Positions 6,416 through 42,242 of a DNA stretch of 42,809 nucleotides are shown piece by piece. Under the pieces are notes generated by a model that did not search any database, had not been told where the DNA came from, and worked only from the letters and a program-made list of their open reading frames with translations. Where the stretch lies: positions 1-42,809 of the IMG/VR virus record IMGVR_UViG_3300048857_000017. The stretch is one strand, 5' to 3'. Numbering within the stretch: the first letter of the stretch is position 1; the number at the start of each line of letters is the position of its first letter. The stretch comes from a virus (taxonomy: Duplodnaviria; Caudoviricetes). The position numbers were made by a program, and so were the translations under genes.

Positions 6416-9400
6416 GCTTGGACCTCCACGTGAAGCGGCTCATGTGCGTCGGTGCGTACCGGCATGCCCTCCATTTCGAAGCGCTCCAGCTGCCGCGTGG
6501 TTTTCGCCGTGTTGCTGGCCATGGCGCGAGCCTCGACGCGCAGCCCCTGGACCTCATCGCGCAGCGACTGCTGCTCCTGCAACAGCGCTCGCAGCGCCGC
6601 CAGCAGCTGCGTCTGATCGGAGCCACCGGCGAGGATGCTCTGCGTCTGCTGCGCATTGAAGATGCGCGACGGCCCGGTGACCTCCAGCTCAGGGCCGTTT
6701 TCACCGACGAGTCGCAATCCGCCCGCATGATCGCCACCGCTGGCAAACGCCGCCACCGGAGCGCCGGTCAGCGCATTCACTACCTGACGAAGCCCGTTCA
6801 CCGTGGCGTCACGCGCCGCGTTGATCGCGTTCGTGAGGATCTGGTCGCCACTGAGGGCTGAGCTTTGCAGCGCAGCCAGTGTGGCGTCGATCTGGCCCAG
6901 GAGCCCCAGGCTTTCTTGCTCGTACCCCTTCGGCGCCACCGCGTCCATTCGCTTCGCGATTGCTTCTGCGCGCGCCAGGGTCGTTGCGATGAACGCCTGG
7001 TACTGAGTATCCGACGAGAAGGCATCGCCGGCGGCGGCCAGCAGCGGTTGGAGCATGCTGTTCAACTGGTCCGCATAGCCGGTTAGCGCATCGCCGTCCG
7101 AGCCAGCTGCCTTGGCGTACAGCTTAGCGAAGTCGCTCTGCATGACCGCGAACTGGTCTTCAGGATCAAGCTGGCTGACGCGGTAATCCTTCACCGTTTT
7201 GCGAAGCGCGGCCGCACCCTCAGACAAAGCGGACGCCAGCGCCTTCTGCGCCTCGTAGTACTTGACCGTCTGATTCCGCAAGTCGCTGAGCGTCGCCACC
7301 GACTTCGTCGCATTCAGCGCAAACTGCTGGAGCGAGTCGGTGTAGGCGAGCTGCTCGTTCCTGGCATTGCGAGCGGCCTCCGTAGCGGCTGCCTGCGCGC
7401 TGGCCGCGGCGCTGACCGATTGCGCGTACTGGTCGCGCAACCGCCCCACATCGACGGCCTGGGGGCCGCTGGCGAAGGTGTTCTGCGCTGATATAAATGC
7501 TGCGATCGCGTTGTCGTAAGCTTGCTGAGCAGCAGGAAGCTGCGCTTGAGCAATAGAGCGGGCCTGATCTAGCTCTTCCCAGTTGTCCTTTTTGTAGCCT
7601 ACCGTCTTGGGCGCATATATGTCCCAATTCAGCTTTTGCAAGCGGGCGAGGGCATCATCCTTCGTCTTCTGCGCGGCATTCAGCGCGGCATAGTTGGCCT
7701 CGTACACCCTTTCCGTCGAGACGTATGCCTGTTCCGCGACATTGCGCTGGCCAACCGCCCCGGCCGATTGGGCCCCGGCCCAGTTCAGCGCTGCAGTCGC
7801 TTGAACGAGTCCCGCGTTGCTGGGCAGCGCCGTGCTGATCCCGGCGATGGCCTGCCGAATTGCTGCCGGAGACATAGGCGCCGGGTCCAGGATGTCACGC
7901 GCCGACTGCCGCACGGCCATCCGCTCATTGCCGATGGAGTCGAACAGCGACTTCATGCGGTCGGCCAGCTGCTGGAATGCAGCGTTGAGCGTAGCCACAA
8001 AGACATCGGCGTCGACATCTGCCAGTGCGTCGCCCATCGACTTAAAGTCGATGATGGTCCCACCAAGGCCTTGTTGCAGCAGGGCTATCTGATCGCCGAG
8101 ATCGGCGCTTGCTTGCTGCGCACCAGAAAGCGATCCATCCAGATTTGCAGTGGAGCCTTGGAAGTCCAGCAGACCGGCATCCAGGTCGAGGAACAACCGC
8201 GAGATTTGCCCGGAAACAACTGATGTCTGCTGGAGCGTGTCCGCCAGCACAAGCGCGCTGAGCGCAGCAGCGTCCATGGCAGGCACGACGCCGCCGCGGC
8301 CCGTGTAGGCGGCCAGGATGCGCGCAGCCATCTCCTGCCCCTGCCGCGCCGTCGCTTCCACGACCGCGGCAAACTCAGGCGCCACGGTCAAGAGCGCGGC
8401 GTAAGCGGCCTGGCCAGCGTCTGAAGTGAGGTCCAGGGCGGACACCATGGCGCGGAATTCTTCCATGGTGTTGGGCAGGACGATGTTCAGCCCCTTGAGC
8501 TGGTCGTTCATGGACGCGAGGCTCAACTTGGCCCGCTCCGCCTCCGAGTAGTATTGCTGGTAATACTGCTGCGTGGCCTGGGTCATCGCATCGATGCCGC
8601 CGAATGCGTCCGCCAGCTTGGTGGCCGTCGCCGCCCCCGTGATCGACACGTCGAACAGCTTCAGGTCCAGCAGTTTCAGCGATTGGTTGACCGCCGTCAG
8701 GTTCGTGCCCAGGCGCGCCAGCGTTGCGGAGGCCGTCTCACCCTCCTTTGCGAAATCGGCAATGTTGGGGACCAGTGAGCGCACCAGGTTCTCGCCCACC
8801 GACGAGATAGCGTCCTCGATGAGTTTCTGGTTCGCCTCTTCGTCTTCGCCGAGCGTCACGCGGATCTGCTCGCTGTAGGTGTCCAGCGACTTAGCAGACA
8901 CGCCTACGACTTGCGCCATGGCGGCCGCGTTCGCCTTCATCTGGTCGAAAGCGGTGCTCACCTGGTCAATGAACGAATCGTCGAGCGTACCGATCTGCGT
9001 GCCGCTCTTGTTGCTGCGAAACAGACCGCCCTTCTGCTTCCATGGCGTGCTGGTGTAGCCGCTGAAACCAAGGGAGCCGAAGTCTCCAACCAGCGAGGTG
9101 TCGCCATACTTCACCGAGCCCATGCCGAATAGGCGGGCGACGGTCGACGATCCGGATAGCATGGACGCCAACTCCCCACCCAGGCCGGCGCTCCGTAGAA
9201 TTTTGTCCGTCCACACTGAAGGGCCGGTGACAGGGTTGTATTTGCCGAAGTCCGATAGCGTCCCGTTATCGGCATCCCAGCCCTGCTTATATAGCGACCG
9301 ACTGGCCAACATGCCAGCGGCGATCCAGCCAACAACTGGGATTGCGCCGGCAAAGCTGGAGCCGAGCCCGGCGGCAGTGCTGCCGGCCGTGGTAGGGCCC

Positions 9401-21856: not shown

Positions 21857-22024
21857 GTCTGTGCGCCAAAACGAACGCCCCGCCGAGCTGGACTCAGGCG
21901 GGGCGCTAGGTGCCGCTGCCGCGGCGGAGGGGATTGTTGCGTTTTATCTCTGCCTTGCTTTGGCTTGGATACATTTTCGACTTCGGACTACGCTACCTCC
22001 GCCAAACGATGGAGGAGAAGACCA

Positions 22025-22252
22025 ATGGCGCAATATAAGTACCCACAAATTCTCACTCAGAATCAACACCAAGCATTCGACCAGCTCCACGGACCAGGTC
22101 AAGTTGTGCCCTTTTCTGGAATTTATCGATGCGCTGGATGCGCGAAAGAAATCGCCGCTAATCAGCGAGATCCCTTCCCGCCACAAAATCATCACCAGCA
22201 CAATCAAACGCAGGGGACAATCCGCTGGCAGTTGATCATCGCAACCAGTTGA
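22025..22252 (+). CDS. Small Cys/His-rich moron protein (YjzC-like zinc ribbon)
   Basis: GGAGGAG RBS. PGQVVPFSGIYRCAGC...FPPQNHHQH...IRWQL. Lower GC, opposite strand. Confidence 0.75.
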   Translation: MAQYKYPQILTQNQHQAFDQLHGPGQVVPFSGIYRCAGCAKEIAANQRDPFPPQNHHQHNQTQGTIRWQLIIATS

Positions 22253-22258
22253 GAAACC

Positions 22259-22297
22259 AAAAAGCCCGCGGCTCTCGCCAGCGGGCTTCCGTTTTTC
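22259..22297. terminator. Bidirectional intrinsic terminator
   Basis: AAAAAGCCCGC...GCGGGCTTCCGTTTTT between convergent genes. Confidence 0.65.
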
Positions 22298-22517
22298 AGT
22301 CATGGGCTTGCGCTTCAGCCCGATCGCGGAGCCGAAGCTCTTGGCGGGTCAAATCGCCGAAATACTTGCGAGCATTGCCGCACATCCAGCACGAGCAAGG
22401 TTTCGGCGTATCGACCGCACGGCCCACCAATTCTGCCGGCAGCTTCCTTCCCCACCACACCTGACGCTTCTTCTTGAGTCGAGCTATCTCGGCCCGTCGC
22501 TGAGCTATCCCAACCAT
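22296..22517 (-). CDS. Small basic protein with CSCWMC motif
   Basis: AAGGAG RBS and TPKPCSCWMCGNARK. First ORF of the late transcript. Confidence 0.65.
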   Translation of the reverse strand: MVGIAQRRAEIARLKKKRQVWWGRKLPAELVGRAVDTPKPCSCWMCGNARKYFGDLTRQELRLRDRAEAQAHD

Positions 22518-22648: not shown

Positions 22649-23167
22649 TCACGCCGCAATCTTCACCAGCTCACGCCGGCGCAACAGCGGCAAGATCTGC
22701 AGCTTCGCTTCCTGATACCGACGATGCTGCTCCTCCGCCGAACAGCGCGGATTGCGGTAGACCTCCACGCCAGCCGCGCGGTTAGCCGTACGCAGGCCCA
22801 CCGCGGCACGCAGATCCACCGGCAGGGCCGCCAGGCACGCTTCTACCTGTTCGGCGATCAGCCGATTCAAGCGCGCCTCACGGTCTTCATCGTCGTCGTG
22901 GACGTCACTGCTATCCGCGTACTGGAACCCAGGCGACACGCGGCTGTATCCCAACTGCTCGCGGTGTGCCTTGGCCCAGTAATACCAGGTCAGTAGCAAT
23001 TCTTCGATCTGTTCGCTCTCGTCCCTTGTCATCACGATCACCCCTTTTCTCCAAAGTGCCCCGAAGGGGTCTTGCTTGATCGGTCCCAGGCGCCGGGATC
23101 TCATCCCTTCCATTCGCTCATACACCTTCGCCGGATCACCCATCTGCCACCGCATCAGGGAGCTCAC
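22649..23167 (-). CDS. Late gene activator / antiterminator Q-like (start may be 23032)
   Basis: IEELLLTWYYW...QVEACLAALPVDLRAAV, positioned just before the late promoter. Confidence 0.6.
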   Translation of the reverse strand: MSSLMRWQMGDPAKVYERMEGMRSRRLGPIKQDPFGALWRKGVIVMTRDESEQIEELLLTWYYWAKAHREQLGYSRVSPGFQYADSSDVHDDDEDREARLNRLIAEQVEACLAALPVDLRAAVGLRTANRAAGVEVYRNPRCSAEEQHRRYQEAKLQILPLLRRRELVKIAA

Positions 23168-26921: not shown

Positions 26922-26986
26922 ATTATCAGTCGGACTGCTTACACAGTCAACAGTCCGACTAATTGCAAACTATCAGCCCTACTAAT
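26922..26986. promoter_or_regulatory. OR operators and PR
   Basis: ATCAGTCGGACTGCT (26925), AACAGTCCGACTAAT (26949), ATCAGCCCTACTAAT (26972). Minus-strand TTGACT-17-GATAAT. Confidence 0.85.
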
Positions 26987-27834: not shown

Positions 27835-28608
27835 ATGTCGATCGCCCTTCAACCAAAGACCAAAGTCAATGAAATTGGCAATGAAATCCGCGAGTTGCTG
27901 ATGGCTAGCTCGCGGTATCTCGACCGCAATGACTTCGCGGTTCGTCTTCTGTTGAAGAAGTGTGCAGAACTGACGAAGGTGGACGCGGCGCTTGGCCATG
28001 TCACCACCGCTCTAGCGCATCAGCTTTATGGGGATGCGGAGGGGATGGAGTATCATTTCCTCAACGCCAAGAGACTGAAACCCGACCAGGACGGCCAGTT
28101 CGATCACTTCTGGGCCCAGGCGTGTGCGAATTTGGGACGCTTTAGCAAAGCCCAAGCGTTGCTCAAGCAAACGCTCCTGCCGGAGCTTGGCTTTTTCACC
28201 TATCGGGCTCTACTGGCACCGCCTATTGGGGCTTTCCATCTGCTTCTCGAGCATTTTGATGGAGCTTTGCGGATGAATGTCCAACTGCCTGACGATTTTC
28301 CCATAGACGCCGTCCGACATGCCACAACTCTGCTGGATCGCGACGGAACGTCGGATTCGGACGTTGCTGCGATGCTTGACCTTATGGGAGAAGTGTTGCG
28401 GGACCGGCAACTGTTCTTCCTTGGGTACGGACCTAAGTGGGACGTTATCGAACACCCTGACTTGCAAATGGTGCACTTTCTGTTCCAGGTGGATGCCACG
28501 CCTACCGAAGTTGCCGATATGAACTTCGACTTAGCCACGAGGATCGCTGATCGGCTAGAACACATTCCTGAAGGGTTCCACGTCAGTTTCACTGGGCGCA
28601 AAGCATGA
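27835..28608 (+). CDS. Hypothetical protein with helical/TPR-like N-terminal half
   Basis: 257 aa, lower GC, ATGA overlap with the HEPN gene. Confidence 0.7.
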   Translation: MSIALQPKTKVNEIGNEIRELLMASSRYLDRNDFAVRLLLKKCAELTKVDAALGHVTTALAHQLYGDAEGMEYHFLNAKRLKPDQDGQFDHFWAQACANLGRFSKAQALLKQTLLPELGFFTYRALLAPPIGAFHLLLEHFDGALRMNVQLPDDFPIDAVRHATTLLDRDGTSDSDVAAMLDLMGEVLRDRQLFFLGYGPKWDVIEHPDLQMVHFLFQVDATPTEVADMNFDLATRIADRLEHIPEGFHVSFTGRKA

Positions 28609-29036
28609 GCGTTACCTCGGACCATATTTTCTCAGCGGGCGAGAAAGTTTTACTCACGGCCGATTGCGAAGGCGACTGGAGGGGAGCGATCGGGCGCTTC
28701 TACTACGCCGTCCACCACCAAGCAAAATTGTTTCACGATGCGCTGCCTTCGCCCGGCGCCAGTACTAGCGATCGTGGCAGCCACGACACGCTTTGTTCGC
28801 AACTGCAAAATCCCACCATTCCTCGCAGCGACCCCAATCATACGAAGTCGAAGCAGATCGGGTATATGAGCAAGACACTGTTGGGCCTACGTATTAAGGC
28901 GGACTATTGGGTAGCTGAAAACGTCTCGAAGGGAGAAGCGACAGAAGCCCGCGAGATAGCTCGTCGCACTCTTGGGTTGGCTACGCCGCAAGCTGCCGCT
29001 CTCTACAACAAAGCGGCCCGCGACGCGGCTTCTTAA
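28605..29036 (+). CDS. HEPN-superfamily protein (UPF0332-like)
   Basis: AIGRFYYAVHH...GSH...LRIKADY matches the HEPN RxYYA / H / RxxADY pattern. Confidence 0.7.
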   Translation: MSVTSDHIFSAGEKVLLTADCEGDWRGAIGRFYYAVHHQAKLFHDALPSPGASTSDRGSHDTLCSQLQNPTIPRSDPNHTKSKQIGYMSKTLLGLRIKADYWVAENVSKGEATEAREIARRTLGLATPQAAALYNKAARDAAS

Positions 29037-30543: not shown

Positions 30544-30585
30544 ATTAGTCGGACTGTTGATTTGCAAATCAGTCCGACTGATAAT
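30544..30585 (+). promoter_or_regulatory. OL operators and PL
   Basis: ATTAGTCGGACTGTT (30544) and ATCAGTCCGACTGAT (30568) match OR. TTGATT-17-GATAAT. Confidence 0.85.
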
Positions 30586-30619: not shown

Positions 30620-30934
30620 ATGGTGATCCTGACCCACCAACAAGCCGCCGCCGTGCTGACCGTGATCGATTCCGGCGGTACGGGCACCGTGACGTTCAAA
30701 GGAGAAGACTGCGCGCTCGTCTCGTTCAAGGACAGCGGCGCTGTCTTCGTCGCCTTGTTCTGCGACGACGGTCGTCGCGACCTGCAAGAAGCGTATGCAA
30801 CCTTCGCGCATTTCCGTCTGGCCTATACCGAGGCCGCGCCTGACTTTGCCCGTGCGGCCGCTCACTACATCCCCATGGCCGCCAAGGCCAAGACGTTGGC
30901 GCAGCACGTCGCCGCCGGCGAAGGCCGCAACTGA
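30620..30934 (+). CDS. Hypothetical protein, first PL gene
   Basis: AAGGAG RBS before ATG 30620. Confidence 0.7.
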   Translation: MVILTHQQAAAVLTVIDSGGTGTVTFKGEDCALVSFKDSGAVFVALFCDDGRRDLQEAYATFAHFRLAYTEAAPDFARAAAHYIPMAAKAKTLAQHVAAGEGRN

Positions 30935-30935
30935 C

Positions 30936-31043
30936 ATGGTCGGCGTCGCCCTCTTCTCCATCGCGGTCGTCTACGCCCTCGCCTGCCTGGGCGACCACGT
31001 GATGCGCCTTCACCGCGACACCGATCCGTGGAGCCCCCGATGA
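30936..31043 (+). CDS. Small membrane peptide (35 aa)
   Basis: MVGVALFSIAVVYALACLG..., tightly packed with its neighbours. Confidence 0.5.
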   Translation: MVGVALFSIAVVYALACLGDHVMRLHRDTDPWSPR

Positions 31044-31177
31044 AGGCCGCTGTCCGCTTCCTTCGCGTCCACGGCGAAACCCTTATCTACGCCGCCGCGA
31101 TCGTGCTGGCCCTGGCCGTACTCGGCCCGACCCTGGACCGCTACGACGCCGAACACGCCCAGACTGCCCAAAGGTAA
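31040..31177 (+). CDS. Small membrane peptide (45 aa)
   Basis: MKAAVRFLRVHGETLIYAAAIVLALAVLGPTLDRYD..., ATGA overlap. Confidence 0.55.
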   Translation: MKAAVRFLRVHGETLIYAAAIVLALAVLGPTLDRYDAEHAQTAQR

Positions 31178-31180
31178 GCC

Positions 31181-31555
31181 ATGACTCCTACCGAACTCGC
31201 TCGCGCCTGGCTTGCTGCCAAGGCTGCCGAAAACCAAGCCTCCAAGCGTCGCCAGGAAGTGGAGGCCCAGATCATCAATCTGCTCGGCGCCAAGGAAGAA
31301 GGCAGCAAGACGCACGACGTGGAGGGCTTCAAGGTGACGATCACCGGCAAGCTTTCCTATAAGGCGGACGTTCCGCTGCTCACCAACCTTTGCGACAAGG
31401 TGCCGACGGAGCTGCGCCCGCTCAAGGTCGAAACCAAGCTGGACGAAACGGGCGCGAAGTGCCTGCGGGCCAACGAGCCCGAGATTTGGGCGTTGATCGC
31501 CCCTGCCATCACCATCACCCCGGCGAAAACCGCCCTCTCCATCAAGGAAGCCTGA
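31181..31555 (+). CDS. Hypothetical protein of the recombination module
   Basis: 124 aa, typical codon usage, directly precedes the AAA_24 gene. Confidence 0.75.
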   Translation: MTPTELARAWLAAKAAENQASKRRQEVEAQIINLLGAKEEGSKTHDVEGFKVTITGKLSYKADVPLLTNLCDKVPTELRPLKVETKLDETGAKCLRANEPEIWALIAPAITITPAKTALSIKEA

Positions 31556-31556
31556 C

Positions 31557-32366
31557 ATGGCCATCTCTCTCGCATCGCTCAAGCGCGTGTCCAACGACCG
31601 CCCACCCATCATCTGCGTCCACGGCGGACCCGGCATCGGCAAAACCACATTCGCCGCCATGTCGGAAGACTGCGTGTTCATTCGGACCGAAGACGGCCTG
31701 GGCAACCTGGAGGCTACGGCATTCCCTATCGCCACCAGCTTCGCGGACGTCATGGAGGCTATCGGCTCCCTGGCAGGTGAAGAGCACAGCTTCCGCTGGG
31801 TCGTGCTCGATTCCCTGTCCGCGCTTGAGCCGCTGATTTGGGACGCCGTAGCGAAAGATGAAGGCAAGAAAAGCGTCGAAGACCTGGGCTACGGCAAAGG
31901 CTACGTCATGGCGCTCGACCGCTGGCGCGAAATGCTGGACGCCCTGGCGTACCTTGCCGCCGAGAAGAAGGTCGGCTCCATCCTGATCGCCCATAGTGAC
32001 ATCGTGCGCCATGAGCCGCCCGAGATGGCGGCCTACGACCGCACCCAGATCAAGTTGCACAAGCGTGCCTTCCAACTGGTGTACGAACGCGCCGACATCA
32101 TCGGCTATGCGGCGCCGGAAGTCTTCCTGTCCAAGGACGGCGACCCGAAGTCCCTCAAAGGTGCCCGCAACATCGCCACCAGCAGCGGCCAACGCTGGCT
32201 GCATCTGGTCGAAAAGCCCGCCTTCATCGCCAAGAACCGCTATCAGATGCCGGAGAAGTTGGCGCTTTCCTGGCCGGAATTTCATGCCGAACTGATGGCG
32301 CGCGCTACGGGCCAGACCGTAGCCGGCCAGGCCAAATCTGCCGAACCCGCGGCGCAAGCCGCCTAA
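31557..32366 (+). CDS. AAA_24 / Sak4-like ATPase
   Basis: GGPGIGKTT, TEDG, VVLDSL, GYGKGY, IAKNRY. Confidence 0.85.
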   Translation: MAISLASLKRVSNDRPPIICVHGGPGIGKTTFAAMSEDCVFIRTEDGLGNLEATAFPIATSFADVMEAIGSLAGEEHSFRWVVLDSLSALEPLIWDAVAKDEGKKSVEDLGYGKGYVMALDRWREMLDALAYLAAEKKVGSILIAHSDIVRHEPPEMAAYDRTQIKLHKRAFQLVYERADIIGYAAPEVFLSKDGDPKSLKGARNIATSSGQRWLHLVEKPAFIAKNRYQMPEKLALSWPEFHAELMARATGQTVAGQAKSAEPAAQAA

Positions 32367-32381
32367 CCCAAGGAGGCCACC

Positions 32382-32852
32382 ATGGCCCAGATGAACTTCG
32401 ACGCGACCACCGTCGCCCCTCAACAATCGTTCTCTCCCATCCCGGCCGGCGTCTACGCCGCACAGATTGTCGACAGCGATGTGAAACCCCTGAAATCCGG
32501 TAAAGGTACGGGCCTGTCCCTGACCTTCGAAGTGCTGGATGGCGAGTACAAGGGACGCAAAGTCTTCGGCAACCTGAATGTCCAGCACACCAACGCCCAG
32601 GCGCAGGAAATCGCCCAGGCCCAGTTGTCGGCGCTGTGCCATGCCACCGGCGTCATCAAGCTGCAGGACTCCAGCCAGTTGCACAACAAGCCCATCCGCA
32701 TGCGTGTGAAGGTCCGCACGCAGGACGGCTACGAGCCCCGCAACGAGGTCACGGGCTTCGAGGCGCTGGGAACCGCCACCGCGGCCGTTCCTGGAGCCGT
32801 CATCGCGGCCCAGCAGGCGCCGGCGCGCACCGCCCCCTGGAAGCGGGCGTAA
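32382..32852 (+). CDS. DUF669 family ssDNA-binding-like protein
   Basis: PIPAGVY...LTFEVLDGEYKGRKVF...LSALCHATG...NEV. Confidence 0.85.
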   Translation: MAQMNFDATTVAPQQSFSPIPAGVYAAQIVDSDVKPLKSGKGTGLSLTFEVLDGEYKGRKVFGNLNVQHTNAQAQEIAQAQLSALCHATGVIKLQDSSQLHNKPIRMRVKVRTQDGYEPRNEVTGFEALGTATAAVPGAVIAAQQAPARTAPWKRA

Positions 32853-32854
32853 TC

Positions 32855-33907
32855 ATGGCGGCCATCGAGGACCCTCGCTTTCGCACGGCCCAGGCGATCT
32901 ACGCCTGGTACGAGCGCAATGCCGACGATGGCCATCGGCCGCACCTGGGTGCCAGTTTGATCGGCCACCCTTGTGCGCGCCATCTTTGGCTTACCTTCCG
33001 GTGGGCGTATGGCAAGAAGTTCAGCGGCAGGATGCTGCGCCTCTTTGACACCGGCCAGCGCGAAGAGGCGCGAATCGTGGCAGAGCTGCGCGCCATCGGT
33101 TGCGAAGTCCACGACGCCGAGCCGGACGGCCGGCAGTTCAGGGTTGAAACGCTGGGCGGCCATTTCTCCGGCAGCCTGGACGCAGCGATCAAAGGCTTGC
33201 CTGAGGCACCAGGAACTTGGCACGTCGGCGAATTCAAGACGCACAACGAGAAGTCCTTCGCCGACCTGAAGAACCACGGCGTGGAGAAGTCGAAACCCAT
33301 GCACTACGCGCAAATGATGACCTACATGGGCCTGACCGGCATGGAGCGGGCTTTCTACTTCGCCGTCAACAAAGATACCGACGAGATCTACACCGAGCGC
33401 GTGGAGTTCTCGCAGGACAAGTTCAAGCGCTTGGTGGACCGCGCCGAGTCGATCATCTTCGCCGCCAATCCGCCGGCGCGCATCAGCGAGGACCCGTCCT
33501 GGTACCAGTGCAAGATGTGCGACCACCGCGAACTTTGCCATGGCGTGCAGATCGCGGAGCCCAATTGCCGTACCTGCGCCCATGTCACCCCGGCGCGCGA
33601 CGGCACATGGCAATGCGAGCGGCACGGTCGGACGTTGGACGTGCCGGCCCAGAAGCAGGCGTGCCAGGCGCACCGCTTCATTCCCATTCTGCTGGAGCGG
33701 CTTGGCGAGCAGGTGGACGCCAGCCAGGAAGAGAACTGGATCCGGTACCGGAACAGGAAGACCGGCGCCTGCTTTACGAATGGCACGCCGCCGGCCGGGT
33801 TCAGCAGCCTGGAGATCCACGCCGCCCAGGATATCGGCGCTCTGGATGATGCCGACGAAACGCTGCACACGCTGCGCGACGCATTCGGCGGGAGGATCGT
33901 CGCGTGA
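32855..33907 (+). CDS. Cas4-like PD-(D/E)XK exonuclease
   Basis: HLGASLIGHPCAR, GSLDA, EFKT, HYAQMMTY, CKMC...C. Confidence 0.85.
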   Translation: MAAIEDPRFRTAQAIYAWYERNADDGHRPHLGASLIGHPCARHLWLTFRWAYGKKFSGRMLRLFDTGQREEARIVAELRAIGCEVHDAEPDGRQFRVETLGGHFSGSLDAAIKGLPEAPGTWHVGEFKTHNEKSFADLKNHGVEKSKPMHYAQMMTYMGLTGMERAFYFAVNKDTDEIYTERVEFSQDKFKRLVDRAESIIFAANPPARISEDPSWYQCKMCDHRELCHGVQIAEPNCRTCAHVTPARDGTWQCERHGRTLDVPAQKQACQAHRFIPILLERLGEQVDASQEENWIRYRNRKTGACFTNGTPPAGFSSLEIHAAQDIGALDDADETLHTLRDAFGGRIVA

Positions 33908-35577
33908 GTATTGCCTTGCGAGCCTACCAATCCACCGCCATCGAGGAATTGCTGGCCTGGTGGGACACCCATCCCGGCCAGGGCCAGATCCCCATCGCCG
34001 TGCTGCCGACCGGCGCCGGCAAGTCAATCATCATCGCCGACATGGTCCGCCAGCTCTTCGCGCTGTGGCCGGAATACCACCCGCGCACCCTGGTCATCGT
34101 GCCGTCCAAGGAGCTGGCCGAGCAGAACGCTGAAAAGCTAGCTACGGTGCTGCCGTCGCATCTGCGGATCGGGTACTACAGCGCCAGCGTGGGCAAGAAA
34201 GATCCGACCGCCGACGTCATCGTGGCCACCATCGGCAGCGTCGCCAAGCAAGCGCACATCCTGGGCAATATCTGCTGCGTTCTGGTGGACGAGTGCCACC
34301 TGATTTCCCCGGACGGCGCCGGACAGTATCGGTCCTTCCTGATTGAACTGGCCCGCTACTGCCAGTTCCGCACGGCTGGCCTGACGGCCACGCCGTTCCG
34401 CGGAAACGGCATCTGGCTGACCGATGGGAAGGCACCGCTTTTCACCGGCATCGCCACCGAGGTACGGCTGCGCCAGCTGCTGGACGATGCCTACCTGTCG
34501 CCCCTGGTGCGCCCTGTGGACGTCCTGGAACAGATCGACGCCAGTGGCGTGGAAGTATCGAAAGCCACCGGCGACTACGACCTGCACCAGTTGTCCGAAG
34601 TGGTGGACGCCTATATCGAGTCCGCGGCCCGCCAGTCGGTACGGATCGCCTTTGACCGGAAAAAGTGGATCGCCTTCTGTCCGACAGTGGCGAACGCCGA
34701 GAAGCTGGCGCGCGCACTCAACACGCTGGGCGTCGTTACGCAGGTTGTCACCGGCGAAACGCCCAAGGCCGTGCGTGAAAGCCTGATCGGCCAGTTCCGC
34801 GCCGGCAAGATCCGCTGCTTGGTCACGGTTCTGGCCCTGGCGACCGGCTTCGATGTCCCGGACGTGGATTGCATTCTGTGGCTGCGACCGACGAAATCGC
34901 CGGTGCTGTACGTCCAGGGTGCCGGTCGCGGCATGCGCATCGCTCCAGGCAAGAAGGACTGCCTGTGGCTGGACTTCTCGGACACCACTGCCCGCCTGGG
35001 TCCGCTCGACAAGATCCGTGGCCGCGCCAAGCGTTCCAGCAATCCCGGCATGGCGCCCTTCGCTGTCTGCGACGACTGCGGAGCCCAGGTGCGGCCCGCC
35101 AGCCTGTTGGTGTGCCCGGAATGCGGCTTTGTCATGCGCGAGGAAGAGGCGCCGTCAGCCAGGAAGGTGAGCGACGCCGCGGTGCTCGCCAGCCAAGTCA
35201 GGCAGAAGATCAACCGCTACGAGATCGACCGCGTCCAGTACGCCAAGCACGAAAAGGCCGGCTCGCCGCCGTCCCTGCGCGTCGAGTACTGGGCCGGCTA
35301 CCGCTGCGTAGCGCGGGAGTGGGTGTGTCTCTCGCACGCGGGCTATGCGCTTGCCAAGGCGAGGTCGTGGTTCTCGGATCGGTCGCCCGCTGGCTACAGC
35401 CATCTTCCGGGATCGGTCGACCAGGCGCTGGAGTGGCTAGACACCGGCTTCGAACTGCGCCAGCCCTCAGCCATCGTGGTCAACGAGACCGCGAAGTTCC
35501 CGGAGATCGTTTCGTATGAATGGAATTCAACTGCAGACGCAAGTGACGGCGCTGCGCGCGATGTTATCGAGGCTTGA
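33904..35577 (+). CDS. SF2 DEAD/DEAH helicase (RadD/YejH-like) with Zn finger
   Basis: LPTGAGKS, DECH, LTATP, TGFDVP, QGAGRGMR, CDDC...CPEC. Confidence 0.92.
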   Translation: MSIALRAYQSTAIEELLAWWDTHPGQGQIPIAVLPTGAGKSIIIADMVRQLFALWPEYHPRTLVIVPSKELAEQNAEKLATVLPSHLRIGYYSASVGKKDPTADVIVATIGSVAKQAHILGNICCVLVDECHLISPDGAGQYRSFLIELARYCQFRTAGLTATPFRGNGIWLTDGKAPLFTGIATEVRLRQLLDDAYLSPLVRPVDVLEQIDASGVEVSKATGDYDLHQLSEVVDAYIESAARQSVRIAFDRKKWIAFCPTVANAEKLARALNTLGVVTQVVTGETPKAVRESLIGQFRAGKIRCLVTVLALATGFDVPDVDCILWLRPTKSPVLYVQGAGRGMRIAPGKKDCLWLDFSDTTARLGPLDKIRGRAKRSSNPGMAPFAVCDDCGAQVRPASLLVCPECGFVMREEEAPSARKVSDAAVLASQVRQKINRYEIDRVQYAKHEKAGSPPSLRVEYWAGYRCVAREWVCLSHAGYALAKARSWFSDRSPAGYSHLPGSVDQALEWLDTGFELRQPSAIVVNETAKFPEIVSYEWNSTADASDGAARDVIEA

Positions 35578-35710
35578 GGCGATCCATGTTTCCTGCAAAA
35601 CCTGTTCTCAGTTCAGTGGCACGACGTGCAAGCGGTATGGAGAAATGCCGCCTGCCGATGTGGTCACCCAAGGGTGCGACGAGTGGGAGTTTGATGGGGT
35701 GCCGTTTTGA
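35516..35710 (+). CDS. Small Cys-rich protein
   Basis: CKTC...C...GCDEWEFDGVPF. Confidence 0.7.
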   Translation: MNGIQLQTQVTALRAMLSRLEAIHVSCKTCSQFSGTTCKRYGEMPPADVVTQGCDEWEFDGVPF

Positions 35711-35714
35711 AATG

Positions 35715-36419
35715 TTAAGCGTTCGCGTCAACGTCTTCGAGATGAGCCCGCATCTGCAGCTCAGTGACTCGCTGACGCAGCCGTTCGTGAGAACCAATAA
35801 GAGCGCAAACCCGAAAATCCTGGTTCTCAGTGCCAAGAACAAGCGCGACTTCTTTCCCCAGTCGTTCGATGCGCATCAACTCTTCGTCACAGAAGTCCCA
35901 AAAGTTCGGCGTGCTAGCGCCGTCCCACGGAATCCTTTTCACGAAACTCAACAGTTTCGGAAGGCCCCCGAGAACCCTAGCAATCGCTTCTGCTTCACCT
36001 TGCGGAAGCTGGCGGAGATTCGGCCTTTCAGAGCGCAATACATCCAAGGACACCGCCGCAGCTTCCCGCTGAATACGCTCCCAAGTACGCTGCTTCGCGC
36101 GCTCAGGCACATCTGGATCAATCATCCGTTGGAAGATCGATGGCAAGCCGCTGAGGAAGTTAAGCAGATCGACAAGCTCGTCATGGACGATCTGCTTGAT
36201 CATCGCCGCCTCGAAACGACGGCCCTGTTCCCTGGCTCTCCTTTCCTTATCTGCCAGCCACAGAGCAATGGCTGCAGCGGCCGCCGTTCCCAGCGCGCTC
36301 ACTATCTCCCACCAATGAGAACCTCCAACCCAGTCAGCACCATCGAATATCAGCTGACCGGCGAGCACCATTGCGGCACCCAACGACACATTGAAGACGA
36401 AATCCGCGCGGCGTTCCAT
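35715..36419 (-). CDS. Accessory membrane-anchored protein (2 N-terminal TM + helical domain)
   Basis: GGGAGAGGGG RBS, WWEIVSALGTAAAAAIALWL, own promoter. Confidence 0.75.
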   Translation of the reverse strand: MERRADFVFNVSLGAAMVLAGQLIFDGADWVGGSHWWEIVSALGTAAAAAIALWLADKERRAREQGRRFEAAMIKQIVHDELVDLLNFLSGLPSIFQRMIDPDVPERAKQRTWERIQREAAAVSLDVLRSERPNLRQLPQGEAEAIARVLGGLPKLLSFVKRIPWDGASTPNFWDFCDEELMRIERLGKEVALVLGTENQDFRVCALIGSHERLRQRVTELQMRAHLEDVDANA

Positions 36420-36524
36420 TCCCCTCTCCCAAGGCGTGAACGGCGGCAATCGTACTCCGGGCCGCGCTCCGGTGTCAGCCCTTGGTGGGCGCAACGGACG
36501 CAGGAGGTGAATGGATCGGATGTA

Positions 36525-36827
36525 TTACAGCCCCAGAATGCGATTGGTTCGCTCTTCATCCATCGCGCGAAGCCGCTGAAACTCGGATTCGGACCCTGCA
36601 CCCATACGCAGCAGCATGAGGTTTACGTCCAGGCCCTTCGCCCGCGCAGCAGCATCAATTTCACGACCGATTTCGTCGTCGATAAGGTCGGAATGTTCGA
36701 CTCCGATTGCGTTGGCCATGTCAGGGGAGCATCGCGCGTTCACCGCAGCCACAATGCTCGGATTGCTATCAATCCAAGTTTGCCTGCCACGTCTCAAGGC
36801 ACCCAAAATCTCTTGATCTTCGGTCAT
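36525..36827 (-). CDS. Accessory hypothetical protein (100 aa)
   Basis: AAGGGG RBS and own promoter. Confidence 0.7.
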   Translation of the reverse strand: MTEDQEILGALRRGRQTWIDSNPSIVAAVNARCSPDMANAIGVEHSDLIDDEIGREIDAAARAKGLDVNLMLLRMGAGSESEFQRLRAMDEERTNRILGL

Positions 36828-36917
36828 CTATGGCCCCTTAGTGATCTTGTCGATCGCCGATCGTACTGCTCCTCCGCCATGTCCCGCAACAATGTCTCGG
36901 ATGCGAGCAACGATACG

Positions 36918-37511
36918 CTATGTGCGGCGACCGCTGCCTCTTGGCTCAAACGGACGGCGATACCTCCATTCGAACACCAATGGCGCGATGAGGCGTCGTG
37001 CCCTAGTCAAGGAGAGTTGTACAGATTTCACTTTCCGTTTATCGCCATTGGGATACTCACCCGAGCGGTGATGCAATTCCACGAGATGTCGTCGCGCATG
37101 ACTTATATAGGCGAGCACGTCCGCAGCGTTCTGAAACTCGCTACCGTCGAGGTCCCGGATGATCTCTCTTACCCAGTCCTCAATCGTCAGGCGTGTGATC
37201 AGTTGGGCGGTGGATACATCCCTTTTCTGAGGGTCACTCTCCAGCCGTTCGATAGCAGCAAGATAGCGCCTAAACTCCGGCCACAGCGCTGTTCTGGCAT
37301 ACGTCATCCGGCGCCTGTCCTCGTGCCTGCGCATGCGGATCTCACGAGTACCCAACCAAGCAGCAACTACCGCTGCGGCCAACGTGCCAAACGCCGTCAC
37401 AACATCGAGCAGCTTAACTTCGGCGATCACCTCGGGGCGACTGGCCCACAGCCAGCCCAGCACCATCCCGCAGCACAGGGCGCCACTGACTTTCACTGTT
37501 TCGTCCTTCAC
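36918..37511 (-). CDS. Accessory membrane-anchored protein (2 N-terminal TM + helical domain)
   Basis: LLDVVTAFGTLAAAVVAAWLG, own promoter. Confidence 0.7.
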   Translation of the reverse strand: MKDETVKVSGALCCGMVLGWLWASRPEVIAEVKLLDVVTAFGTLAAAVVAAWLGTREIRMRRHEDRRRMTYARTALWPEFRRYLAAIERLESDPQKRDVSTAQLITRLTIEDWVREIIRDLDGSEFQNAADVLAYISHARRHLVELHHRSGEYPNGDKRKVKSVQLSLTRARRLIAPLVFEWRYRRPFEPRGSGRRT

Positions 37512-37642
37512 TTCTTCCGTCCGCGGAGAATCCAGAACGCCGCATCGTACCGCCTAGCGCGACGCGTGTCTGCCATGTCGCGCAACAGCCGCACGAAGCA
37601 CCAGAAGCGGGGCCGGGACTTCCCGTATCCGGGGCAGGAGGA

Positions 37643-38722
37643 TTGATGAATCCGCTCCAACAAAGAGGCTTCCCAATCCCAATAAGTCGGCTTTCCTCGT
37701 CAGTCGTGCAGACCTTTCGGATAGGCGAATACATGCTCTCGATGCCACTCAAGGTACGTGGTCTGCCTGCTGGAAAATCTCCCCACGTTTTTCGAGACGG
37801 GCAGACCCCAAGCTCGCATTGCGTTTTTGGCGCCAATGTGAACTTGCAGATCACCATTCTGCGCGAAGGAAATCCAGCCCTTGTCGAAAAGTTTGTCGAC
37901 ATGCGGAGAGAGCATGAGGCCGTTATGGCCATCAAGTCGCTCGTCGTCGTCGCTCGAGCGCCAGGGCTTAATGTGGCTCGCGATCAGAAACGATGGGTCC
38001 GAAACACCTGTCAGCCGACACGAAGTTTCGACTTTCAACACCTCCACACGATACTGCCCCTGCCCGATACGGGCTTGCTGCAATCTCAGCTTTTGCGTTT
38101 CTGGAATGCGGCGCGCACGCGTCTCAGCCTGGTCTGCAGCAACCTCTACAGCGTCCTCATCGAGTCCGGCGCGCGCGATCAGCCAACGCGCCAGGGCCAG
38201 ATCAATCTCGTGGAGGTACGAGACATTCCCGTCACCATTGGCCCTCAAAGGGGCATGCTTCTGACGCAACAGTGGGCGAATTTCATCTATGTGTTGCTTC
38301 GGGGCGATCCGTTCCGAGAGGCGCGTCCAAGAGACTGCGACCTCCAAGCCCTCGTCATTCCACCATCCCGAATATCCTTCACGGGCTTTCGCAGGGTGAG
38401 AATCCTTCGTCGCAATTCCAACCGCAAGGATCTTCTGATCCGCGTAGGAGAACACCATGTCGCCGGCGCGAACACGGCGCATGGTCAGCCAGGATTCGCG
38501 CCGAATATCGCCGTCCCTCAGTGCAGGACACCAGATGTATCCCTCGGCAAGCTCGCGCCTGAACATCCGCCCATGGTTTACCCACCAGAATTTCATGCCC
38601 ACCTCCCAGAGTCGCCGCAATCGTACTGCGGCGCCACGAGGAGCCGCAACGGCGCTCATTCTCTGCAACCACTAAGTTGCATTCAACCATCTACTTGTCA
38701 GGAGGCTGGGTCGTGGAGTTGA
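37643..38722 (+). other. Stop-free ORF antisense to the HNH gene, coupled at both ends
   Basis: AGGAGG RBS. Its start overlaps the stop of the previous ORF (TTGATG) and its stop lies 7 nt inside the methyltransferase ORF. Confidence 0.45.
37700..38596 (-). CDS. EVE/PUA-like + HNH endonuclease (VcaM4I-like modification-dependent restriction candidate)
   Basis: N-terminal FWWVNH...EGYIWCP...GDMVFSY. C-terminal RIGQGQYR...CRLTG...ASHIKPW...NGLMLSPHVDKLFDKGWISF. Confidence 0.8.
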   Translation of the reverse strand: MKFWWVNHGRMFRRELAEGYIWCPALRDGDIRRESWLTMRRVRAGDMVFSYADQKILAVGIATKDSHPAKAREGYSGWWNDEGLEVAVSWTRLSERIAPKQHIDEIRPLLRQKHAPLRANGDGNVSYLHEIDLALARWLIARAGLDEDAVEVAADQAETRARRIPETQKLRLQQARIGQGQYRVEVLKVETSCRLTGVSDPSFLIASHIKPWRSSDDDERLDGHNGLMLSPHVDKLFDKGWISFAQNGDLQVHIGAKNAMRAWGLPVSKNVGRFSSRQTTYLEWHREHVFAYPKGLHD

Positions 38723-39774
38723 ATCGCTGCTACCTGGGCGACTGCCGCGATGTCATGCGCGACCTGATCGCGCGCGATGTGCGCGTGCAGTGCATCGTCA
38801 CCAGCCCGCCGTACTTCGGTCTCCGCGACTATGGCGTGGATGGCCAACTGGGTCTAGAGCCGACGCCGGAAGAGTACGTCGGCGCACTGGTCAATGTGTT
38901 CCGCGTTGCTCGAGATCTGCTGGCCGACGACGGCACGCTCTGGCTGAACATTGGGGACAGCTATTGCTCGCGGCCAAATGGCACTGTCGGCAAGGAAAGC
39001 AGGCTGCAGGGAGCCTTCACAGGCCATACTGAGTTTCGCCGCGCACACGCGCTGCGCAAACCGGGCGTGCCGTCAGGCCTGAAGCACAAGGATCTGATCG
39101 GTGTGCCGTGGATGCTTGCGTTCGCGCTGCGCGCCGACGGCTGGTATCTACGGCAAGAAATCATCTGGCACAAGCCGAACCCGATGCCTGAGAGCGTACG
39201 CGACCGCTGCACCAAGGCGCACGAGCATCTCTTCCTGCTCACGAAGTCGGAGCGCTACGCCTTCGACGCCAGCGCGATATCCGAAGAGGCCTCCGGCGAA
39301 TTGCCTGGCAACCGGTCCGCGTTGAAAGGCACTGCACAGGATCCAGAGAAGCACCGGACCCGAGCCGGGCTGCACGCCTATGCAGAACGCCAGCGCAGCC
39401 GCCGTTACAGCTTCGCGCGGCAGACCAAGGAGTCAGCGGCGGTGCACGGCCAAACCGCCCAGCACCGCCCAGACCGCGAGGACGTCGACTATGCCGGCCG
39501 GCGCAACAAACGCAGCGTCTGGACTGTGGCCACCAAGCCTTACGCCGGCGCGCACTTCGCTGTTATGCCAGAGACGCTGGTGGAACCGTGCATCCTGGCC
39601 GGTAGCCGGCCCGGTGACATCGTGTTCGATCCATTCATGGGGTCCGGAACGGTCGCAGCCGTGGCCCAACGCCTAGGCCGCCGCTGGCTCGGCGCGGAAC
39701 TCAATCCCCAATACATCGAACTGCAGGCGCAGCGCACGCGCCAAGCCGGCCTGCAACTGGAGCATGCCACATGA
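38713..39774 (+). CDS. DNA methyltransferase, beta class (N4-C/N6-A)
   Basis: Catalytic TSPPY precedes SAM motif FDPFMGSGT. GGAGG RBS before the GTG start. Confidence 0.92.
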   Translation: MELNRCYLGDCRDVMRDLIARDVRVQCIVTSPPYFGLRDYGVDGQLGLEPTPEEYVGALVNVFRVARDLLADDGTLWLNIGDSYCSRPNGTVGKESRLQGAFTGHTEFRRAHALRKPGVPSGLKHKDLIGVPWMLAFALRADGWYLRQEIIWHKPNPMPESVRDRCTKAHEHLFLLTKSERYAFDASAISEEASGELPGNRSALKGTAQDPEKHRTRAGLHAYAERQRSRRYSFARQTKESAAVHGQTAQHRPDREDVDYAGRRNKRSVWTVATKPYAGAHFAVMPETLVEPCILAGSRPGDIVFDPFMGSGTVAAVAQRLGRRWLGAELNPQYIELQAQRTRQAGLQLEHAT

Positions 39775-39805
39775 ATACCCGTTCACTTTTCCGCTGCGCG
39801 GGCAG

Positions 39806-40492
39806 CTATCGCTCTTGGATGAACCGAACGATCGAGTCAATCTCTTCGACCGTCGTATCGAACCACTCCAAGCCAGGCACGTTCTCGCGCCAACGACCAC
39901 GATTCTTCAACGTGTTATGTACAGCGAGCTCCAATGCCCGCACTCGTTGCGCTGTCCAGGTGCCTAGTATGCGGGGATTCTCGAATGATGCGGACTTTCG
40001 GCATTGGTCCGCAACTCGCTTTTCGGCGTCACCCGAGGCGAGGCCAATCTTGATTGGGAACGGAGCGCCGTCTCGCATAAGCATGGGGAATGTGAAGGCA
40101 TACAGCGTCCCAGCTAGTGTGCTTTCTTCGACTTCCTCACCGGCGAGTTCTTCGCCTTCGAGTTCGGCCTCTTCGAGGTCGTCTTCCTCATCACCCGGGA
40201 TCCGAAAGAGTCCGGCGCCGAGGTTGATCAACTGCCCTGTGTTCTTGGCAATGAATGGCACATAGAAACGGATCGTCTTCCCGACGGACACGGAGCCGCC
40301 GGCTCGCGGACGTTCGAAGGTTGCTGCCTGCTGGTCTGTCGTGAGGTACTTGTCCGTAATGGCTCGCACGAACTCTATCAGGCGAAATTGGTCCCCGGAG
40401 GCAACTTCAGGCTGTTGCAGTATCTCCGGAAGCGCCTTGTAGCGCGCGAAGCGATAGCAGAACGAATTCGTCGGTTCGAAATCGATGTCCAT
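39806..40492 (-). CDS. GIY-YIG (T5orf172-like) nuclease with N-terminal domain and acidic linker
   Basis: GTLYAF...IKIG...KRV...LELAVH...EWF. GGAGGGAG RBS. Promoter TTGGCA-18-TACTCT at 40547-40518. Confidence 0.75.
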   Translation of the reverse strand: MDIDFEPTNSFCYRFARYKALPEILQQPEVASGDQFRLIEFVRAITDKYLTTDQQAATFERPRAGGSVSVGKTIRFYVPFIAKNTGQLINLGAGLFRIPGDEEDDLEEAELEGEELAGEEVEESTLAGTLYAFTFPMLMRDGAPFPIKIGLASGDAEKRVADQCRKSASFENPRILGTWTAQRVRALELAVHNTLKNRGRWRENVPGLEWFDTTVEEIDSIVRFIQER

Positions 40493-40615
40493 CTCTCCCT
40501 CCACTCGAAAAGCCAGCAGAGTAGGTTATGAATAAGAAATCTGCCAAGCGAAAACTTGTTCCTGCCGCCCCTTTCCGTCCACCCGCGCCCAGCGTGCCGC
40601 AGAGGGGGATGCGTG

Positions 40616-41005
40616 ATGCGTAACATGAGCTTCGCCCTGACGACAGAACAGATTCGCGCTGGCATCAAGGACGTAACGCGGCGGGCCGGCTGGCAATTCC
40701 TCAAGCCCGGGAACCTAGTGCGCCCGGTCCTGAAAGCCATGGGGTTGCGCCCCGGCGAAAAGATCCAGGCGCTGCGCCAACCGATCCGCATTGTGAGCGT
40801 ACGGCGCGAACCGCTGCGCGCGATGCTGGATGACCTGGACTATGGCTACGAAGAGGTGCGCCGCGAAGGCTTCGAGGGACATCCACAGCACGGCCACCCA
40901 AGCACCTGGGTAGACATGTTCTGCGCCTCTCACAAGGGCGTGACGCCGGACAGCCTGGTAACCCGGATCGAGTTCGAATACACCGACGAGGTCGACCATG
41001 GATAG
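40616..41005 (+). CDS. ASCH-like domain protein
   Basis: MSF...IRAGIKDVTRRAGW...VSVRREPL...REGF...RIEF. Confidence 0.7.
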   Translation: MRNMSFALTTEQIRAGIKDVTRRAGWQFLKPGNLVRPVLKAMGLRPGEKIQALRQPIRIVSVRREPLRAMLDDLDYGYEEVRREGFEGHPQHGHPSTWVDMFCASHKGVTPDSLVTRIEFEYTDEVDHG

Positions 41006-41116
41006 GCGTGAACCCGGCCAGCCCGAGGGGACGCCGCCGGCGACCTCCGGATCATCCTGCCTGGTCCACCACGGGTCTGTGGCGGCCCGCGCCCCGGAGG
41101 TTCCAGGAGGAAACCC

Positions 41117-41347
41117 GTGATCACGCTGACCCCCGAGGAAATCACCGAATTGACGCACCGCTCGCGGAAGGGGGCACAATGTGACGCCCTGAAGCAGCTG
41201 GGCATCCCCTTCAAGATCAGGCCGGACGGCACACCTGTCGTGCTCCGGGCCGCCATGGAAGCCGCGTTGGGCTATGCGAACAAGAACCAAGGACCGACAC
41301 CTCCCCGCGTGCGTCTACCAGAAGCACGGCGCCTACTATCTCGTTAA
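41117..41347 (+). CDS. Excisionase-like (DUF4224) protein
   Basis: LTPEEITELT...Q...L...GIPFKIRPDGTPVV, AGGAGG RBS, overlaps int. Confidence 0.8.
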   Translation: MITLTPEEITELTHRSRKGAQCDALKQLGIPFKIRPDGTPVVLRAAMEAALGYANKNQGPTPPRVRLPEARRLLSR

Positions 41348-42242
41348 GCAGGGGAAATGGCAGCGCCTAGGCGGCGATTTGCACGAAGCCCTGACCGAGT
41401 ACGCGCGCTTGGTCGCGGCGCCTAAGGACGGCATGCCGTCATTGATCGACAAGGCCATGCCGGCCGTCATAGAGGGCAAATCACCCTCCACGGTGACCCA
41501 GTACCAGTACTGCGCCCGGCTGCTCAAGGAAGTCTTTGCTGATTTCCGGCCGGAACAGGTCCGGCACGGCGACATCGTCCAGATGCTGGACGGTTTCAAG
41601 GATCGCCAGGCCATCGCCAACCGCATGCTGACCGTCCTTCGCCTGATCTTCCGCTGGGCCCTGGACCGAGAGCTTGTCGAGGCAGACCCGACCGTGAGCG
41701 TGCAGCGCTTCAAACAGCGATCGCGCGACCGGCTCATCAGCGATCGGGAATACGCGGCTATCTACCAGCAATCCGCCCCCTGGTTGCAGTGCGTCATGGA
41801 CCTTTGCTACCTCACGGGGCAGCGCATCGGCGACGTGCTCAAGATCGAGCGAGCGCACCTTCTGACCGAAGGCATCTTCATCGAGCAGCAGAAGACCGGC
41901 AAGAAGCTGATCGTCGGCTGGACGTCGGAGCTGCGGGAAGCCATTGAGCGGGCCAAGAAGACGGTCGGGCAGGTCCAGGCCATGACCTATATCCTGGCGG
42001 GGCGCCGCGGACGCCTACGGGCCCATGCGAACGTCTGGAAGGCCTTCAAGCTGGCAGCCAGTAAGGCCGGCGTCGAGAACGTGACGCTGCACGACTTACG
42101 GGCGATGTCGGGCACAGAAGCCGACCGCCAGGGCATGGATGCGACTGCCCTTCTCGGCCATACGGACCGTCGCACCACCCGCATTTACCTGCGCGACAAG
42201 AGCACCAAGGTGGTGGCCAGTCCGCGCAAAAAGGCTGGATAA
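41274..42242 (+). CDS. int: Tyrosine recombinase (integrase)
   Basis: TGQRIGD, QQKTG, HDLR, LGH and catalytic Y (TRIYLR). Confidence 0.93.
   Translation: MRTRTKDRHLPACVYQKHGAYYLVKQGKWQRLGGDLHEALTEYARLVAAPKDGMPSLIDKAMPAVIEGKSPSTVTQYQYCARLLKEVFADFRPEQVRHGDIVQMLDGFKDRQAIANRMLTVLRLIFRWALDRELVEADPTVSVQRFKQRSRDRLISDREYAAIYQQSAPWLQCVMDLCYLTGQRIGDVLKIERAHLLTEGIFIEQQKTGKKLIVGWTSELREAIERAKKTVGQVQAMTYILAGRRGRLRAHANVWKAFKLAASKAGVENVTLHDLRAMSGTEADRQGMDATALLGHTDRRTTRIYLRDKSTKVVASPRKKAG

Follow-up and report, generated by a model that had tools for sequence, protein, structure and literature searches.

Stop-free, coupled reading frames opposite reverse accessory genes in the early operon of a lambdoid-type prophage

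The window analysed here, 42,809 bases long, is a single virus record (IMG/VR record IMGVR_UViG_3300048857_000017, whole length) and represents a lambdoid-type prophage. Structural genes, primase and cro occupy its minus strand, whereas the repressor, an early recombination operon, xis and int occupy the plus strand (Table 1). The operon (30620-42242) is a tight chain of genes with gaps of at most 15 nucleotides (nt), except over a reverse gene, R5, in its distal part. Between a helicase gene with its small downstream neighbour and a methyltransferase gene, four further genes (R1 to R4, below also called cargo) point backwards, against the operon, and look like genuine genes. The plus strand opposite them contains two long open reading frames (ORFs), here termed bridges 1 and 2, which run across all four genes and the intergenic DNA between them.

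Bridges across the reverse genes

The original prediction had described this arrangement as a frame-preserving array of antisense cassettes, and its layout holds. R1, R2 and R3 lie in one register, with offsets of 810 and 1203 nt, and bridge 1 runs for 644 codons without a stop from the ATG at 35712 to the TGA at 37644-37646. Its junctions, TGA-A-ATG-TTA where it begins and AGGAGGA-TTGATG where it ends, are as described; bridge 2 is in register with R4, an HNH gene, and ends 10 nt into the methyltransferase ORF. The start of bridge 1 is correct as a coordinate, but the frame stays open for 56 codons further 5' (previous stop 35544; open from 35547) and offers other in-frame starts, among them ATG 35586, ATG 35694 and a TTG at 35574 that overlaps the stop of the helicase gene. 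Because these exist and ATG 35712 has a poor Shine-Dalgarno sequence, the true start is uncertain. Within the small gene, the +1 frame is open where a cassette directly follows (window 35516-35710; L001 11207-11401) and closed where an ordinary gene follows (L002 10607-10801; L003 10613-10807), a pattern hinting that the bridge may begin further 5', although it is confounded by kinship.

Pfam, PHROGs, PADLOC and NCBIfam yielded no match to the bridge proteins. When synonymous codons and intergenic sequence were shuffled with cargo-like codon usage, bridge 1 was open in 0 of 1,500 shuffles, 13.5 stops being expected; core-gene usage gave P=0.0007 in the same design. The corresponding values for bridge 2 were P=0.0013 (cargo-like) and 0.033 (core-gene). 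The codons TTA, CTA and TCA, which would place a stop in the aligned opposite frame, are absent from all 833 codons of R1-R4 at a third-position G+C content (GC3) of 0.58-0.65; other low-GC3 genes of the window use them 6 times in 306 codons, 3 in 144, 5 in 277 and 3 in 227.

Homology over the full length of the EVE and HNH domains relates R4 to VcaM4I, the EVE-HNH modification-dependent nuclease of PDB 6yex (PMC7897488), and R4 is likely to be a modification-dependent restriction nuclease by this resemblance. As the original prediction required, its homologues elsewhere use TTA/CTA/TCA normally: four plasmid homologues contain 3, 6, 5 and 14, against 0 in R4 (a fifth, L156, was omitted as it is annotated as truncated). 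No R4 homologue was found in the viral contigs searched, and no R1 homologue in the plasmids searched; R1 matches unnamed protein clusters and has a weak likeness to other cargo. The prediction had counted four reverse genes. R1-R4 are indeed fully bridged, but R5, the fifth, is only partly covered: an ORF spans two thirds of the gene, which is not significant alone (P=0.067), and over the rest there are only very short ORFs with a 42-nt gap. The T5orf172 gene follows, in reverse orientation, two methyltransferases that are unrelated to each other (window 39806-40492; L027 8483-9169), each of which supplies an ATGA-coupled cover ORF of 164 codons.

The open frame in relatives

The window was chosen for its open frame, and its relatives are therefore the unbiased test. 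They were gathered through the helicase (16 loci, 3 of them close), the integrase (80 loci), the small gene (5 loci) and short DNA motifs, so that every query, by protein or by short motif, was blind to the openness of the frame across cargo; a scan of genome contigs yielded four distant helicase loci only. After removal of duplicates and chance matches, 11 contigs with reverse cargo at 12 sites were retained. The chance pattern matches that were dropped are L025 (1 of 6) and L116, L119, L121, L123, L128, L129, L131 and L132 (8 of 19). The relatives all come from one phage community and have some cassettes in common. The flanking genes differ widely both upstream and downstream; in L162, a distant relative, ordinary forward genes follow the small gene. 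A second bridge proposed after the helicase of L001 proved wrong, the ORF (10635-11210) being a plus-strand HNH homing-type gene. It sits at the 3' end of the helicase gene, where its insertion is marked by a short duplication and the C-terminus has been replaced.

The expectation that related loci would keep the plus frame open over largely different cargo was borne out at 12 of 12 sites in the 11 contigs. Thirteen bridges were scored, two from the window and 11 from relatives (L118, 99% like L110, was omitted), and their 4,221 codons contain no stop, against 215 stops in the other two plus frames. Resampling of synonymous codons and intergenic sequence, with the last 25 codons excluded, leads one to expect 71.7 stops under cargo-like usage, set at 56 in 2,617 control codons, and 42.2 under core-gene usage. 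Non-redundant in-register cargo, after removal of four redundant cassettes, contains no TTA, CTA or TCA in 2,207 codons (18.5-47.2 expected) and, leaving out the window, none in 1,382 (11.6-29.6 expected). The non-cargo sequence within bridges, 3,232 nt, is likewise open.

Could GC-rich codon bias, together with in-phase recombination, leave such frames open with no selection at all? Several core genes (capsid protease, tail tube, Sak4, exonuclease) do lack an in-register antisense stop, and short bridges, which are often open under the null, are not significant singly (P up to 0.78, L130). However, cargo GC3 spans 0.57-0.79, and neither the absence of stops where core-gene usage still predicts dozens, nor the missing codons in the relatives' cargo alone, nor the open non-cargo sequence agrees with this explanation. 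The stop counts fall far below both nulls, so that a neutral shadow ORF is statistically rejected, and we regard it as most improbable. Selection for an open plus frame is well supported, since the relatives are open, promoter-to-promoter distances are multiples of three and homologues of the HNH gene use the three codons normally; the stop-free bridge is real and selected.

Two features beyond the original prediction accompany the bridges, namely an in-phase promoter-like repeat and a conserved micro-ORF. A TACGAT element lies 24-33 nt 5' of each of R1-R4, and a hexamer resembling TTGCG or CTGACA is found another 17-18 nt 5' of it. As a word, this -10 sequence is not enriched across the window (5 seen; 6 of 100 shuffles reach 5), and its value is its position before each cargo start. 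Its phase relative to the bridge is the same in 21 of the 22 repeat copies in the 13 bridges, and the proposed spacing in multiples of three is found for all nine repeat-to-repeat distances, six of them distinct. Identical or close cassettes occur beside different neighbours, which suggests exchange by recombination at the repeat. With the repeat in fixed phase to the bridge, such swaps would keep the frame open; the Sak4-like annealing protein of the phage, in the role that we assume for it, plausibly helps.

What is selected along most of a bridge does not appear to be its protein. In the L027/L117 pair the cargo is 91% identical and the bridge translation 60%, and the unbridged R5 pair gives similar values (93%, 62%); changes fall mostly at third cargo codon positions (66 against 16 and 8). 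No amino-acid constraint on the bridge protein was detected, with the exception of the last 23 codons, and because bridge identity matches that of the unbridged control, the filler is selected for openness and not as a protein. The exceptional tail is the micro-ORF, whose 12 copies differ pairwise by 372 synonymous and 288 non-synonymous codon changes and encode Ser2 by both TCN and AGY codons. A conserved RNA structure was ruled out (-2.6 kcal/mol; 1 of 8 pairs covarying). The last codons double as the Shine-Dalgarno sequence of the next ORF, and the first as the -35 of the reverse promoter-like element. Searches for the micro-ORF gave no match among annotated phages, and the protein database contained no candidate for it. 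In L023, an otherwise different, cargo-free prophage, it stands alone with its own ribosome-binding site (reverse-complement 6947-7021).

Table 1. Features of the prophage that bear on the bridged array, with positions in the window
Feature	Position	Strand	Remark
Bridge ORF 1	35712..37646	+	644 codons from ATG 35712; filler and conserved C-terminal tail
Bridge ORF 2	37643..38722	+	ATG 37646 overlaps bridge 1 stop
Micro-ORF	37575..37646	+	23 amino acids, Arg/Pro-rich, conserved; end of bridge 1
R1	35715..36419	-	234 amino acids; hydrophobic N-terminal region; unnamed family; ESM Atlas feature score 0.97
R2	36525..36827	-	100 amino acids; no family; well-folded, confident Atlas model (pLDDT 0.88)
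R3	36918..37511	-	197 amino acids; hydrophobic N-terminal region; 6 homologues, 48-54% identity
R4, EVE-HNH nuclease homologue	37700..38596	-	full-length VcaM4I homologue; PDB 6yex, E 4e-63, residues 1-290
P1, promoter-like element for R1	36449..36478	-	CTGACA-18-TACGAT
P2, promoter-like repeat for R2	36860..36889	-	TTGCGG-18-TACGAT; overlaps decayed copy of micro-ORF 5' end
P3, promoter-like element for R3	37544..37572	-	
P4, promoter-like repeat for R4	38620..38649	-	TTGCGG-18-TACGAT
R5 (T5orf172)	39806..40492	-	fifth reverse gene; no promoter repeat; partly bridged only
Cover ORF over R5	39771..40265	+	164 codons; partial, out of register; ATGA-coupled; same in L027
PL-like early promoter	30557..30585	+	TTGATT-17-GATAAT; consensus match only
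PR-like site	26922-26950	-	operator-like palindromes in common with PL-like promoter
DNA helicase	33904..35577	+	early operon (Sak4-SSB-exonuclease-helicase module)
Small gene	35516..35710	+	64 amino acids; directly 5' of array; kept in relatives; phrog_23504
N6/N4 DNA methyltransferase	38713..39774	+	GTG start 38713; first ordinary operon gene past array
xis (41117-41347) and int (41274-42242)	41117..42242	+	distal genes of the operon

What the bridges may do

The host is probably an environmental Bordetella-like bacterium, as judged from a prophage-borne ligase that is 84% identical to the ligase of Bordetella sp. H567. Rho and transcription-translation coupling, as generally known in Proteobacteria, are assumed to operate in it. 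On this basis, translation of the bridge probably protects the PL transcript against Rho and against polymerases that approach head-on from the cargo, a reading to which we give a probability of about 0.6. A ribosome trailing RNA polymerase on the coupled filler would shield the early transcript until methyltransferase, xis and int are reached. In the lysogen, the repeats would drive the cargo; upon induction, PL transcription would cross the array with ribosomes on the bridge and would also turn the cargo down. Cassettes would be swapped at the in-phase repeat with the frame staying open. For E. coli, it is described that a trailing ribosome blocks Rho termination and that antisense strands are typical Rho targets (PMC13323073), and that extending an ORF through an antisense gene makes RNA polymerase more processive while that gene is repressed about 6-fold (bioRxiv 10.1101/2020.09.23.310730). 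Preference for the aligned register would follow from its being the only one in which synonymous changes can clear every stop from the opposite strand, as described in PMC6884476.

The bridges can evidently be loaded. A start codon lies -7 to +2 nt from the upstream stop in 12 of 12 testable bridges, against 3 of 24 other frames, and a Shine-Dalgarno sequence is found 7-10 nt 5' of the start in 10 of the relatives' 11 bridges. Two claims of the original prediction nevertheless need qualification. The coupled ends are present, but the coupled starts come in part from a Shine-Dalgarno sequence and start that the upstream gene already provided. Similarly, the shared register is preferred, being found for 19 of 22 cargo ORFs, and not required, as 3 of 22 are out of register.

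Several observations weigh against protection of the transcript as the role of the bridges, or limit its reach. Much of the coupling probably goes back to the junction that the next gene used before its displacement, and thus shows that a bridge is loadable, not that its start was selected; L001 has no start beside the upstream stop, and ATG 35712 in the window lacks a good Shine-Dalgarno sequence. Two out-of-register cargo genes contain 8 and 3 TTA/CTA/TCA codons, yet there is no stop in the bridge frame, which speaks for selection; singly, however, these cases are weak (P=0.058 and 0.31), and they are homologous to each other (49%). The enrichment of C over G in bridges is mild (1.09-1.29). 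About 290-350 nt of R5 are left uncovered unless the chain of very short ORFs is accepted. In a crude survey of distant integrase loci, of the 22 reverse genes called only two, both from L027, had the whole gap open, so that the open-frame rule is not universal; this survey under-calls low-GC cargo, because its codon model came from this phage and its loci were limited to GC contents of at least 55%. Furthermore, an unrecognised antiterminator is possible, because the first PL gene has no family match; no antiterminator family was matched among the early genes scanned, and early genes without a family remain. The plus strand has no terminator-like site in 35000-41500.

The bridge might instead hand ribosomes to the next gene by termination-reinitiation, with only that gene's translation depending on it. 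Canonical ATGA, TGATG and TAGTG junctions at both ends would fit such a relay, as would the predicted probability, only 0.20-0.68, that the Shine-Dalgarno sequence of the next gene is unpaired, and L134, in which the open frame is not that of the micro-ORF and the bridge continues in frame as a fusion with the next gene. But in 11 of 12 cases a Shine-Dalgarno sequence of its own precedes the next ORF, so that a role at the level of the transcript is favoured over relay alone; the next gene varies between phages; and, to judge from the free micro-ORF of L023, a short ORF with its own start would do no worse than 644 purged codons. We consider a relay unlikely. Delivery of the 23-residue peptide, with cargo insertion in the micro-gene 5' end having removed the ribosome-binding site and left the peptide to be made as a fusion tail, would account for the amino-acid constraint on the micro-ORF, the absence of a conserved RNA structure and the standalone copy in L023. 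It cannot be the whole reason for the bridge, since three bridges (window bridge 2 and L117 site 1, both without the micro-ORF, and L134) do not end in it, and as a full explanation it is very unlikely.

Another possibility is that the bridge keeps early mRNA from pairing with cargo mRNA and from RNase III, or that it mainly shuts off self-harmful cargo upon induction. Sense and antisense transcripts would overlap over about 3 kb, and the cargo includes a likely modification-dependent nuclease beside a phage methyltransferase. In S. aureus 80alpha an antisense architecture is described as turning off phage immunity (PMC11087260), and protection by ribosomes has been proposed for narnaviruses (PMC8316113). 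In contrast, most of the cargo has no known toxicity, and the methyltransferase is of N6/N4 type, whereas VcaM4I senses 5-methylcytosine and 5-hydroxymethylcytosine. As a sole explanation we find this quite unlikely, but it is compatible with transcript protection and does not exclude it.

Building on protection of the early transcript, a wider scheme can be proposed tentatively. The repeat, doubling as the 5' end of the micro-gene, would be a phase-fixed exchange site, and all circulating cassettes would come already purged of opposite stops. Defence and exclusion genes could in this way enter an essential early operon by exchange, with a single train of ribosomes taking the place of an N-type antiterminator and silencing the cargo upon induction.

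Known relatives in design and further observations

In their architecture, the bridged arrays resemble noncontiguous operons and excludons such as the men operon of S. aureus and tha/ith of its prophage 80alpha, where one or more opposite genes with their own promoter lie inside an operon (PMC11034616, PMC11087260); here, four reverse genes, each with a promoter-like element, lie inside one. The mutual repression tied to the life cycle that is described for excludons (PMC11087260) is plausible here too. In noncontiguous operons, the strand over the antisense gene is described as untranslated, and the atlas names this stretch as a puzzle resolved for Gram-positives by runaway transcription (PMC11034616). 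This phage, likely proteobacterial, differs in that its opposite strand is a purged and coupled ORF.

Action resembling that proposed here is known from ambigrammatic narnaviruses, with a long codon-aligned reverse ORF without stops, reported to lack protein homology, whose translation has been proposed as its function (PMC6884476, PMC8316113). In these RNA viruses of eukaryotes a single, fixed pair of genes is involved, the reverse ORF lying over the gene for the RNA-dependent RNA polymerase (PMC6884476, PMC8316113). The phage has the aligned frame purged of TTA/CTA/TCA but is a temperate double-stranded DNA phage with no such polymerase overlap, and its bridges span several interchangeable genes with intergenic DNA and are coupled to operon neighbours. 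Shuffling, in turn, recalls the PeSL cassettes of T4-type phages, in which a repeated promoter borders each accessory gene and likely mediates shuffling, and which include a terminator stem-loop (PMC2839356). A repeated sigma70-like promoter borders the variable genes here too, in 22 copies, but no terminator-like site was found within 35712-38722, and the repeat faces against the operon, overlaps the micro-ORF and is phase-locked to the reading frame. The locus joins the architecture of a noncontiguous operon to a proposed action like that of a narnavirus reverse ORF and probable shuffling like that of PeSL cassettes; a defining feature of each of the last two is absent.

The engineered E. 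coli interference system is alike in that an ORF through an antisense gene protects the polymerase from Rho and represses the opposing gene (bioRxiv 10.1101/2020.09.23.310730), but it is synthetic, and the phage array would be a natural, evolved and modular instance. The Gifsy-1 orf45-anrP leader also uses an ORF for a variable protein to drive the next gene through an AUGA overlap; it is described as short, regulated by small RNA and not placed over antisense genes (PMC4825925). The nearest phage report, on olg1 and gene 10 of Fc02, concerns functional overlapping proteins (PMC9936078). In lambda, sieB is likewise a reverse accessory gene inside a lambdoid PL operon, but the PL strand over it has 9, 15 and 4 stops in its three frames and no bridge. 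The lambda PL operon is under N antitermination, and a sieB without a bridge is as expected if bridges protect the transcript.

A literature search, which most subscription papers lay outside of, found no earlier account of filler ORFs kept free of stops opposite reverse cargo in phages. The bridges would offer an answer to the puzzle raised by the atlas of noncontiguous operons (PMC11034616), namely how a backward gene is crossed where RNA polymerase needs a trailing ribosome. They would imply a hidden constraint on phage cargo, with three codons avoided and cassette lengths in multiples of three, and a class of ORFs selected for being translated and not for their product. For annotators, such long ORFs would be neither artefacts nor ordinary genes; for phage engineers, they suggest a rule for inserting genes into early operons. 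In addition, they could provide a simple sequence signature of defence cassettes expressed in lysogens.

Further observations concern other parts of the prophage. A possible small extra bridge lies in the late-operon leader, where a minus ORF (21944-22303) starts in an ATGA overlap and crosses in register a plus ORF (22028-22252) of 74 amino acids that has a CxxC motif and no TTA/CTA/TCA; it is short enough to be open by chance, and no homologue was found among the loci examined. Just 5' of the late genes, a 172-residue gene (22649-23167, minus strand) has a weak sigma-factor match, and its position suggests, by analogy, a Q-like late antiterminator. The window contains no Rfam match and no tRNA. 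Two low-GC3 genes right behind the repressor (27835-29036, plus strand), in the position of lambda rexAB, form a candidate exclusion system; the pair has no match in Pfam or PADLOC, and the second gene matches only a PHROG of unknown function. At the prophage end, a LigD-type ATP-dependent ligase domain (88-1083) is also present in relatives G002, G003 and G005.

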